Sequence record: NC_105587.1
Length of the DNA: 64,000 nucleotides
Origin: Escherichia phage EC100
Reading direction: 5' to 3' (one strand)
The notes under the pieces are model-generated. The model searched no databases. It saw nothing but the letters and a program-made list of their open reading frames with translations, and was not told the DNA's origin. Below are positions 1,941 to 63,451 of the stretch, one piece after another (within the stretch, counting starts at the first letter, position 1; each line of letters opens with the position of its first letter). Made by a program: the position numbers and the translations under genes.

Positions 1941-2015
1941 TGGTGCACCCTGTTCGTATCGAACGAACCTCTCAAGCTCTTCAGGCAAGCGCTAATCCAT
2001 CTCAGCTAAAGGTGC
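1941..2015 (-). tRNA. tRNA-like element, anticodon arm not resolvable (possible pseudo-tRNA)
   Basis: Good acceptor stem (GCACCTT/AGGGTGC), T-arm GTTCG-TTCGATA-CGAAC and 3' CCA, but no clean 5-bp anticodon stem could be folded by hand. Confidence 0.3.
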
Positions 2016-7581: not shown

Positions 7582-7656
7582 TGGCCGAGGTGACAGGATT
7601 CGAACCTGCATAAAGGAATTTAGAAGACTCCTGCCTCTCCCTTAGACTACACCCCG
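7582..7656 (-). tRNA. tRNA-Arg (anticodon UCU)
   Basis: Acceptor CGGGGTG/CACCTCG, anticodon stem GGAGT/ATTCC with loop CTTCTAA, T-arm GCAGG-TTCGAAT-CCTGT, CCA. Confidence 0.7.
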
Positions 7657-61653: not shown

Positions 61654-61687
61654 AATAAAAAAGGCTCTGGGCAAATCACCCAGAGCC
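61654..61687 (-). terminator. hairpin terminator/attenuator between tail chaperones and tape measure gene
   Basis: GGCTCTGGG-CAAATCA-CCCAGAGCC followed on the minus strand by TTTTTT, 15 nt before the tape measure ribosome-binding site. Confidence 0.55.
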
Positions 61688-61721: not shown

Positions 61722-62213
61722 TTACCGTGCTCGAGATTTGGCATGCGGCTTAACGTTAGGTATTCTACCGTTTTGCGGCTTATGCTTCTCAGCACGTTTA
61801 CGTGCAGCGTCTACAGCTTTAGCATCAAATATATTGATAATGTGTAGAACAAATTCTTTTTCTATAGGGTCGGTAATCCCATAAATATCAAATAAAACAC
61901 CTAAAGCAGCCTTGTCTTTACCTATAAAGATAGGGAAGTCACCAGGTATGAAACAGTCAACTAGACTATTATAAATATTCATACTAATAGCTACAATAGG
62001 TGGAAAGTCTTCAAGTTCAACAGGCATAGCCTTAGGATCAGGTTCTATACCCATTGACTCACAAAGTATTAAATATTGTTGTTTAGTCATTTTAGATGCT
62101 GAGCTTTTAATACACTTATCTGCAAAATCAGCAACAGCATCTAGTAGTTCTTTACGCTTTTGAGCTACGAAAAGTGTCGAGGTGGAACACTGTCTGGTTG
62201 ATCCAAGAATCAA
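61722..62213 (-). CDS. tail assembly chaperone, downstream frame (possible frameshift extension)
   Basis: Overlaps the upstream chaperone ORF by about 60 nt in the +1 frame; first internal ATG is only at codon 42. Confidence 0.4.
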   Translation of the reverse strand: MILGSTRQCSTSTLFVAQKRKELLDAVADFADKCIKSSASKMTKQQYLILCESMGIEPDPKAMPVELEDFPPIVAISMNIYNSLVDCFIPGDFPIFIGKDKAALGVLFDIYGITDPIEKEFVLHIINIFDAKAVDAARKRAEKHKPQNGRIPNVKPHAKSRAR

Positions 62214-62556
62214 ACGCAGCAGAGTTCTGCATAAGCATTACAGCATTATCACGACTAAATGGAACTTCAGTAGTAGGATCAGCATCTGTCTCAATCAGCA
62301 TCAGCTTTTCAACGTCACCTACAGTCAAACCAGTCCAACCTTTAATTGCAGCATCAACGAAAGCTTCAATAAACTTATCGTCATCCTGTACTTGAATTAG
62401 AGTACCATTAACCCACTCATCGCGTTTGGCGGAAGAGATAACACGCTTAGAGGTAGCACGAGACATATAGTTAAGCTCTAGCTTAAAGTTTGGCATACCT
62501 GGGTATGAAAGAGTAATAGTACGGGTATCAAGGGTAATATCTTTTAAATTAATCAT
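62152..62556 (-). CDS. tail assembly chaperone
   Basis: Start moved to ATG 62556 with GGAGA ribosome-binding site; sits between the p140-like and tape measure genes. Confidence 0.55.
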   Translation of the reverse strand: MINLKDITLDTRTITLSYPGMPNFKLELNYMSRATSKRVISSAKRDEWVNGTLIQVQDDDKFIEAFVDAAIKGWTGLTVGDVEKLMLIETDADPTTEVPFSRDNAVMLMQNSAAFDSWINQTVFHLDTFRSSKA

Positions 62557-63451
62557 TTTTAATTTCTCCAAAGAAATCTATTCTCACTGGGTCTGAAGAA
62601 GCAGTAGGTATAATATCCCACTCAACTTTATACACATCTGAGAAATCTAGGCGTTTTGTAATACGTGCTAAAGGAAAATCTATAGAAATACTATTATTTC
62701 TTATATTTAAAGGTACATCGGTCTCTGGTTCGATATTGTAAACCATATCTCCAGCAAAACGTTTTAAGTAATATAGAGAAATGGTTGCCGAAGCATTCAT
62801 TTCATTTACATAGGCTCTTTTATTATTATAGATTTTATTTATATCAAAAACACTCTTATCTTCTCTCCAAGAGCATTGCTGTTGAAAAGATAAAGAGGCG
62901 GAAATAAGGCCAGGTAAGATGCTACCGTTAGTAGAAACTATTACCGGGCTATAAGACATTGCTTCACCCTGTATAATAGAAGCTGCTTCTCTATATGTAG
63001 ATACTTCGGAGAATTTCCCTGACTCAATACCAACGTTAAGAATTGGTATATTCTTATCTAAAGAAAAATCTACTGTAGATACATAACAGTTTTCAAAATA
63101 TACACAGTTGTTATCTTTATTTACTATATAGATATTAAACATAATAGGTTCAATATTGTTACTATATAGTGGTAGTAAGAAAGTATTACCTTTTCTGTCA
63201 AAACCTAGCCATTCAAAAAAGTTAGCTTCAGTAAGTGTATTACTAAAATTTATTGCTAGAGAGATAGAAGAAGGAGTTTGAGCATTTATAATAGAGTCTG
63301 CATAGTTAGTTCTACGATGAATAGTCCTACGAAGGGTCTTAAATTCTTCGTAGGATGTTTGTACATCATAGTTTGATAGGGCATCAAAATGAAATGCCCT
63401 ACCATCATACTCAACTATAACTTTTGACTCTCGCATTAGAGAGTAGTACAT
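62549..63451 (-). CDS. minor tail protein (T5 p140-like)
   Basis: 300 aa directly downstream of the tail tube gene; call by synteny and size. Confidence 0.5.
   Translation of the reverse strand: MYYSLMRESKVIVEYDGRAFHFDALSNYDVQTSYEEFKTLRRTIHRRTNYADSIINAQTPSSISLAINFSNTLTEANFFEWLGFDRKGNTFLLPLYSNNIEPIMFNIYIVNKDNNCVYFENCYVSTVDFSLDKNIPILNVGIESGKFSEVSTYREAASIIQGEAMSYSPVIVSTNGSILPGLISASLSFQQQCSWREDKSVFDINKIYNNKRAYVNEMNASATISLYYLKRFAGDMVYNIEPETDVPLNIRNNSISIDFPLARITKRLDFSDVYKVEWDIIPTASSDPVRIDFFGEIKND

Follow-up and report, generated by a model that had tools for sequence, protein, structure and literature searches.

A probable +1 programmed frameshift at UUU_CGU in the tail assembly chaperone pair of T5-like phages

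How do T5-like phages express the second of two overlapping tail assembly chaperone frames, when that frame lacks a conserved start codon? We addressed this question in a 64,000-nucleotide stretch of Escherichia phage EC100 (NC_105587.1; the whole stretch is hereafter the window), in which two overlapping open reading frames (ORFs) lie on the minus strand. A sequence-only reading of the window had placed them between the p140-like gene and the tape measure gene, with an overlap of about 60 nucleotides, and had proposed that programmed frameshifting (+1 or -2) close to the upstream stop makes a fusion, or else that translation of the second protein begins internally. Our comparative analysis suggests that the pair is probably joined by a +1 programmed frameshift at UUU_CGU, which would yield a 277-amino-acid G-T-type fusion. 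By its sequence, the window is a T5-like coliphage: its chaperone region matches that of Escherichia phage EC104 at 100% identity and those of many Tequintavirus genomes at 95-98%, and T5 and the window share 97.5% identity at the protein level in this region.

The described layout was borne out, as the mapped neighbours place the two ORFs where they had been reported. On the minus strand, the codon phases differ (62556 mod 3 = 0 for the first ORF versus 62213 mod 3 = 2 for the second), and the second frame therefore lies one base further 3', that is +1 or, equivalently, -2. A TAA at 62240-62238 precedes the downstream frame, which stays open from 62237 until its own stop TAA at 61724-61722. 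Counted from the first TTG (62213), as the sequence-only reading had done, the overlap is 62 nucleotides; as a stretch open in both frames (62237-62152), it is 86 nucleotides. The statement that the downstream frame has no ATG until codon 42 is also correct, the first being at 62090 when codons are numbered from the same TTG. In the window the -1 frame is closed, with stops within 2-3 codons past the G stop, and no X_XXY_YYZ slippery heptamer occurs in the overlap, so the common -1 form of the chaperone pair was not found here. Lacking a conserved start, the second frame begins within the last part of the first and would be reached by a shift.

We compared 23 loci, comprising T5, Eps7, Yersinia phiR2-01, Pectobacterium DU_PP_V, Klebsiella K7_rec5, Pantoea AAS21, Proteus phage 1, the Vibrio phages PG07, ValDsh2, phi3, Gary, D350 and D260, one IMG/VR contig and nine metagenome contigs. 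Grouped at 70% amino-acid identity of the fused protein, they make up 15 clusters, and the most divergent pairs share 23%; scans of IMG/VR with single proteins returned close relatives only. In 23/23 loci the second frame is offset by +1 from the first. We searched each locus for a TTT before a pyrimidine, requiring frame 0 to be open for at least 100 codons upstream and to stop within 25 codons, and the +1 frame to stay open for at least 100 codons downstream (90 for L032 and L033). Exactly one site per locus was found in the chaperone pair, and it is always TTT CGN (23/23). A second match in L032 falls at the boundary of the p140 and G genes and was set aside as unrelated. The conservation check suggested by the sequence-only reading came out positive, with the +1 geometry and TTT CGN retained in every locus even at 23% identity, and in all 23 loci an in-frame UUU is followed by a C that would let tRNA-Phe(GAA) re-pair in +1. 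Judged from these alignments, the recurrence of this geometry and site exceeds chance.

The codons flanking the site vary, both before it (ACT, ACC, AAC, GGG, TCC, ACG, TGC, TTG) and after it (AGC, GGC, ACA, AAC, GAC, ACT, AAT, TCT, TCA, TAA). In each genome, we defined the permitted shift zone as running from the nearest upstream +1-frame stop to the frame-0 stop. The upstream limit in T5 and most relatives is a +1-frame TAG two codons before TTC, and at the other end the site runs straight into the frame-0 stop in D350 and L020-L022 (TTT CGT TAA), leaving a minimal 14-nucleotide overlap in Vibrio phage D350 (ACAACTTTCGTTAA). The permitted zones of all loci intersect in just five P-site codons, -3 to +1 around the invariant TTT CGN, and because the flanking codons vary, only the TTT of these five can re-pair in +1 (UUU to UUC). 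The triplets onto which a -2 slip at the site would have to re-pair (CTT, ACT, CCT, GGT, CGT, GCT, TGT) are not conserved, and we therefore set aside the -2 variant.

Codon usage at the junction points the same way. In a codon alignment of 17 lineages, 25 columns are conserved in at least 16 lineages, and the junction Phe is the sole single-codon column among them, being TTT in 17/17 lineages and never TTC. The other 24 use several synonymous codons, including two further invariant Phe columns (TTT/TTC 10/6 and 11/6). The 0-frame Arg at the site is CGT in 13 lineages, CGA in three and CGC in one, never AGR, and further loci also carry CGT or CGA; AGA and AGG together make up 30% of Arg codons in the window. 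As at other UUU_CGN-type sites, the A-site codon is CGN and conservation at synonymous positions is enhanced. In a 108-nucleotide alignment across the family, TTTCG is the only invariant block, and the full UCC_UUU_CGU is found exactly in four loci (L020-L022 and L028), representing three of the 15 clusters. The fused protein aligns across the junction with a gap of at most one residue, seen only in Proteus phage 1, in alignments of both nine and 17 lineages.

Between the shift site and the first ATG lies a linker of 26 codons in the +1 frame. No ATG, GTG or TTG occurs between the site and 62090 in the window, T5, Eps7 and others. Across six lineage pairs, the pooled ratio of nonsynonymous to synonymous change (pN/pS) of the linker is 0.20 in the +1 frame versus 1.19 and 2.23 in the other two, the same level as in the flanking G and T domains. 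This start-less linker is thus under purifying selection only in the +1 frame, which counts for a frameshift and against an internal start. A GGAG-type Shine-Dalgarno sequence precedes the G ORF start in 17/17 lineages, and the T frame has neither a conserved start nor a Shine-Dalgarno sequence. Two annotations, AAS21 gp014 (L007) and Gary gp31 (L010), begin the second coding sequence at a TTG or GTG inside the overlap. These starts lack a Shine-Dalgarno sequence (duplex energy -1 to -2 kcal/mol), and the annotators evidently sensed coding upstream of the first ATG.

These observations suggest the following mechanism. Most ribosomes would make the 134-amino-acid G-type protein and terminate at 62152. 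In a minority, with UUU (62172-62170) in the P site and the Arg codon CGU waiting, we infer that peptidyl-tRNA-Phe (anticodon GAA) would slip +1 and re-pair on UUC (62171-62169), the better pairing, so that a G-starting codon, here GUA (62168-62166), would be read next. The fusion would comprise G residues 1-129 plus 148 amino acids, 277 in all, and read ...HLDTF/VAQKRKELL... (the slash marking the junction), where the 0-frame product reads ...HLDTFR; the tryptic junction peptide expected from a +1 shift at UUU_C is DNAVMLMQNSAAFDSWINQTVFHLDTFVAQK. By analogy with lambda, binding of the tape measure protein would fall to the G part and recruitment of the tail tube protein to the T part. The efficiency is probably low, at a few per cent or less; there is no conserved structure or stimulator, which fits a low-efficiency site such as a G:GT pair needs. 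Of the two possibilities raised by the sequence-only reading, the frameshift near the upstream stop thus gains support and can be sharpened to a probable +1 shift at UUU_CGN, six codons before that stop, whereas an internal start as the conserved mode is unlikely, given an unconserved Met at 62090 without a Shine-Dalgarno sequence and an upstream linker selected in the +1 frame.

An internal start was weighed in its strongest form, in which no recoding occurs, the overlap is incidental and a 122-amino-acid second protein is initiated at ATG 62090, with MTKQQYLILCESMGIEPDPK as its N-terminal peptide. Two separate coding sequences are indeed annotated in T5, DT57C, ESCO40, Eps7 and most others (the RefSeq T5 record and nearly all relatives list two separate 'tail assembly chaperone' genes), about one third of T-family representatives begin at the equivalent Met, and a Shine-Dalgarno-like sequence precedes some internal ATG in K7, D350, L020 and L026. 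However, the residue at this position is Met in only 7/17 lineages and I, V, L or F in the other 10, and where that Met is missing the next ATG falls inside the conserved domain. Before ATG 62090 itself, no Shine-Dalgarno sequence is present in the window, T5 or Eps7 (duplex energy with the anti-Shine-Dalgarno about 0), and a 9-bp hairpin ending 2 nucleotides before this ATG in the T5 group would occlude the ribosome-binding region for independent initiation; the stem is kept with a G-U wobble in Eps7 and is not conserved outside the T5 group. Nor did we find a promoter-like site inside the pair on the minus strand. An internal start would leave unexplained both the purifying selection on the 26 start-less codons upstream, in the +1 frame only, and the invariant TTT CGN with its suppressed synonymous change. 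We consider it unlikely that the second protein arises in this way alone, and a stand-alone T protein could be made besides the fusion.

A fusion might instead be made at the A-run UCA_AAA_G (62163-62157), through a -2 slip or a +1 slip of tRNA-Lys from AAA to AAG. The only joined coding sequence that we found, that of phage Shivani (KP143763, CPT_Shivani132; AJA73579.1 / YP_009194776.1, 277 amino acids), has its junction here: an exact look-up of all candidate junction sequences identified it as -2, ...FRSSK/KRKELL.... Shivani carries the same gene pair at 96% nucleotide identity, and so agrees with our reading in having a fused 277-amino-acid chaperone and differs in placing the junction at a site that is not conserved across the family. 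AAA_G does permit cognate +1 re-pairing of tRNA-Lys, and the A-run lies within the 26-nucleotide stretch open in both frames in T5. Yet it is altered to AAA_T in K7 and L024/25 and to AAA_C in L026, is absent before the 0-frame stop in AAS21, PG07, ValDsh2, Gary, L017, D350, D260, L020-22 and L030, and falls outside the five-codon intersection of permitted positions. Moreover, the -2 target CAA is not cognate for tRNA-Lys, and the +1 residues V-A-Q-K that separate TTC from the A-run show no gaps in the alignment and keep their general character from lineage to lineage. The A-run is unlikely as the ancestral or general shift site, and we would be surprised if the fusion were made there, although it might serve in the T5 group alone. 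Finally, the frame change might reflect RNA polymerase slippage on a T-run or A-run, or a sequencing or assembly artefact. The overlap does contain a four-T run (62173-62170) and a four-A run (62161-62158), but productive transcriptional slippage is known from homopolymers far longer than these runs of 3-4 nucleotides, and most lineages have TTT only. An artefact is ruled out by the recurrence of the two-frame arrangement in over 900 independent phage genome records, and this explanation as a whole is extremely improbable.

Several observations weigh against a +1 shift at UUU_CGU. RNAalifold returned 0 pairs on the family alignment, indicating no conserved RNA structure, and no Shine-Dalgarno-like stimulator upstream of the site is conserved across the loci. 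One hairpin of the window (z = -2.3) is particular to the T5 group and lies 26 nucleotides downstream, and we therefore discarded it as a stimulator of the shift. By codon usage, CGT is the commonest Arg codon in the window ORFs (373/738) rather than a rare or slow one, and the 'hungry' A-site codon of many +1 sites is therefore not evident. In-frame TTT CGN occurs a further seven times in 53 window ORFs, and a proposed depletion of TTT_CGN among Phe-Arg dipeptides was not supported (8 observed versus 9.7 expected). The motif alone is therefore weak, and function rests on its context and conservation. TTT CG is also doubly coding (F-R in frame 0, F-V/E in +1), so its conservation is perhaps partly at the protein level, and the lineages are related, so that the counts are not independent events. 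The Sugarland genome announcement describes a chaperone that, like that of T5, has no predicted frameshift signal (citing Zivanovic 2014), and we found no trans-frame peptide reported in the papers available to us. The chaperone goes unmentioned in the announcements of Shivani, Stitch, Seabear, Seafire and Sepoy. In favour of the shift, across the 53 long ORFs of the window, a codon starting with a pyrimidine follows TTT in 23% of cases (91/397) versus 52% after TTC (145/281), a genome-wide avoidance of UUU_Y as expected if this sequence is shift-prone in the host.

We next consider what the two proteins are. The first ORF matches phrog_313 at profile positions 12-141, and the T frame matches phrog_3914 (E = 2e-57) and phrog_313 positions 170-258, the phrog_313 E values being 3e-34 and 2e-17; both profiles are named tail assembly chaperone. 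As phrog_313, with its 258 positions, spans both the G part and the T part, this profile models the two as one protein. A Pfam-A scan of the window protein gave no family even at E <= 1, and a sequence-profile search of the PDB gave no match. Precomputed tables list PF27119 (Phage_YdaY) for homologues of the G ORF (L022, L024, L027, L030; P0168-P0178), and the mismatch with our own scan reflects either a version difference or a borderline score. The AlphaFold model of the first ORF has a predicted local distance difference test (pLDDT) score of 83 and a predicted template modelling (pTM) score of 0.74, and the shift site falls within its final six residues, a stretch modelled as disordered. 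In a word-index search of a protein collection, the fused 277-amino-acid query gave no match and each half alone did. Among 146 T-family representatives in a library of 1.84 billion proteins, 144 are short stand-alone calls (67-178 amino acids) with ragged N-termini, and the long matches P0014 and P0138 were rejected as in-frame G-T fusions because they are repetitive proteins; no in-frame fusion is present among the 146, and the frame break is therefore universal in this set. Two public records stand out by their labels: a 10-kb record named 'Listeria phage LM 4-11-1' (OR846901.1) is 96% identical to this T5-like region, and P0168, a protein labelled 'Enterococcus faecalis, partial', matches the G ORF at 97% identity. 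Each looks like T5-like sequence that was mislabelled or came in as a contaminant.

The positions of the features discussed are collected in Table 1. All genes of the chaperone region are on the minus strand, in the order pb6-like gene, p140-like gene, G ORF, T frame and pb2 tape measure gene, which puts the pair after the tail tube genes and just upstream of the tape measure, as is typical of G/GT chaperones; the metagenome relatives show the same gene order, with neighbours PF23779 and PF24164/5. For the G ORF, a TTG at 62571 is an alternative start, and ATG 62556 is more likely, given the GGAG at 62569-62566.

Table 1. Features of the chaperone locus and related tRNA genes in the window.
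Feature	Position	Strand	Remarks
pb6-type tail tube gene		-	first in minus-strand order
p140-type baseplate tube gene	63451-62549	-	
Shine-Dalgarno GGAG of G ORF	62569-62566	-	
G-type tail assembly chaperone ORF (T5.143 homologue)	62152..62556	-	134 amino acids; ATG 62556, stop TAA 62154-62152
Nearest upstream +1-frame stop TAA	62238..62240	-	sets 5' limit of the shift in the window
Proposed +1 shift site UUU_CGU	62167..62172	-	0-frame TTT 62172-62170, CGT 62169-62167
A-run UCA_AAA_G, rival shift site	62157..62163	-	site implied by the joined Shivani coding sequence
T-type extension, +1 frame	61722..62168	-	148 codons plus stop TAA 61724-61722
Linker between shift site and first ATG	62091..62168	-	26 +1-frame codons, without own start codon
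9-bp perfect stem (UAGAUGCUG ... CAGCAUCUA)	62093-62143	-	ends 2 nucleotides before ATG 62090
ATG of annotated separate 122-amino-acid 'tail assembly chaperone' (T5.142 / ORF131 type)	62088..62090	-	
Terminator-like hairpin	61663..61687	-	between T-frame stop and tape measure start; 3' boundary of chaperone unit
pb2-type tape measure gene	61639-57956	-	
tRNA-Arg(UCU)	7582-7656		reads AGA; only phage tRNA-Arg seen in window
Phage tRNA-Phe(GAA)	1941-2015	-	anticodon loop C-U-GAA-G-A; two U.U mismatches in anticodon stem

The terminator-like hairpin that closes the chaperone unit has an 11-bp stem with seven G-C pairs followed by TTTTTT, and T5 records annotate the same hairpin as a putative rho-independent terminator. 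Because so strong a hairpin precedes the tape measure gene, expression of the latter may need read-through or another promoter. In T5 (NC_005859 95777-96529), the chaperone pair and the tape measure gene are separated by an inserted endonuclease gene, T5.141, which the window lacks, and a putative homing endonuclease interrupts the same neighbourhood in phage IrisVonRoten; the chaperone/tape measure junction seems to be an insertion hot spot for mobile nucleases.

The tRNA genes of these phages may bear on decoding at the site. E. coli modifies A37 of its tRNA-Phe to 2-methylthio-N6-isopentenyladenosine (ms2i6A), and loss of this modification raises +1 slippage at UUU_Y. The phage tRNA-Phe of the window has G at position 37, versus A37 in E. 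coli tRNA-Phe, and that of the distant Vibrio phage Gary (L034:19311-19386) has G37 too, with one U.U mismatch. In Gary, the genes for tRNA-Phe(GAA) and tRNA-Arg(ACG) are adjacent, 9 nucleotides apart (L034:19311-19471), and together they decode UUU and CGN, the codons of the proposed site. We rejected the idea that a G37 tRNA-Phe is specific to Demerecviridae: the T4-like Klebsiella phage VPA32 has an identical anticodon loop (Listeria phage LP-064 has A37), and similar tRNA-Phe genes occur in more than 600 phage records from unrelated families. The G37 tRNA-Phe may be relevant to +1 slippage at UUU_Y or to evading host anticodon nucleases. A bolder proposal, that UUU_CGN is a kingdom-independent minimal +1 cassette, which Demerecviridae have employed since their common ancestor to fix the G:GT ratio and whose efficiency the phage G37 tRNA-Phe tunes during infection, is in our view very unlikely to hold.

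How does the proposed shift compare with known systems? In lambda, gpG and gpGT are produced by a frameshift at a G:GT ratio of about 30:1 (Levin 1993; Xu, Hendrix & Duda 2004, as summarised in part of PMC5009743). The two systems are alike in having two frames flanked by the tail tube genes and the tape measure gene, a shift only a few codons ahead of the first stop (proposed here) and an abundant short product with a rare C-terminally extended fusion (here inferred), and the predicted fold of the G part may resemble that of known chaperones. They differ in that the shift here would be +1 rather than -1, without an X_XXY_YYZ heptamer (G_GGA_AAG in lambda), and would involve a single-tRNA slip in the P site rather than a tandem slip; lambda G and T also show no detectable sequence similarity to the window proteins (no Pfam match). 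The chaperone shift of phage Mu is reportedly -2, as Xu and colleagues are said to have found in 2004. That of the haloarchaeal myovirus HSTV-2 is described as 'very likely +1' in a passage of PMC5009743. Mu and HSTV-2 resemble the present case in that shifts other than -1 serve a G/GT arrangement, and differ in site and lineage, and we found no link of either to UUU_CGN.

The core of the site is identical to that of the influenza A PA-X shift, for which UCC_UUU_CGU is the minimal +1 cassette, acting at a very low level without evident stimulators, according to the section on it in Atkins et al. (2016, PMC5009743). The same section notes that this cassette guided the discovery of further +1 sites, with UUU_CGN in amalgaviruses and chronic bee paralysis virus. 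No evident stimulator was found here either, and low efficiency is likewise to be expected; by contrast, translation here is bacterial, the virus is a double-stranded DNA phage and the product would be a morphogenetic chaperone fusion, not a host shut-off factor. CGU is rare in the influenza host, unlike here, where it is a common codon. Among bacterial sites, a 1997 study by Schwartz and Curran, going by its title, is said to belong with those at UUU_Ynn. Such sites are shift-prone in +1 and include Yersinia YopN-TyeA, as stated in part of PMC5009743. They share with the site proposed here the type of host, the putative re-pairing of tRNA-Phe from UUU to UUC/UUU, and independence of a stop codon, whereas the present site is invariant throughout a virus family and leads into a long conserved ORF, and cellular UUU_Y sites are mostly error sites. 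In E. coli prfB, encoding release factor 2 (RF2), the P-site tRNA slips +1 at CUU_UGA to better or equal pairing, as we propose here, but prfB uses an A-site stop codon and an upstream Shine-Dalgarno stimulator, neither of which is conserved at the phage site. The G/GT logic, shifts other than -1 and UUU_CGN are thus each known, and it is their combination in a chaperone pair, family-wide and including a model phage, that appears to be new; we found no description of it in the literature on Tequintavirus or Demerecviridae frameshifting.

T5 is a model siphophage whose tail assembly and structure are actively studied. If our reading is true, the real products of its chaperone locus would be a 134-amino-acid protein and a 277-amino-acid fusion, and hundreds of annotations across about 900 related genomes, together with the one -2 annotation, would be corrected. 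As a clean and deeply conserved case, the locus would be suited to training frameshift predictors, which now fail on +1 sites. The near-universal G/GT logic of long-tailed phages would then extend to a forward shift at a defined minimal site, and the UUU_CGN of influenza PA-X and other RNA viruses of eukaryotes would also act as a selected recoding signal on bacterial ribosomes.

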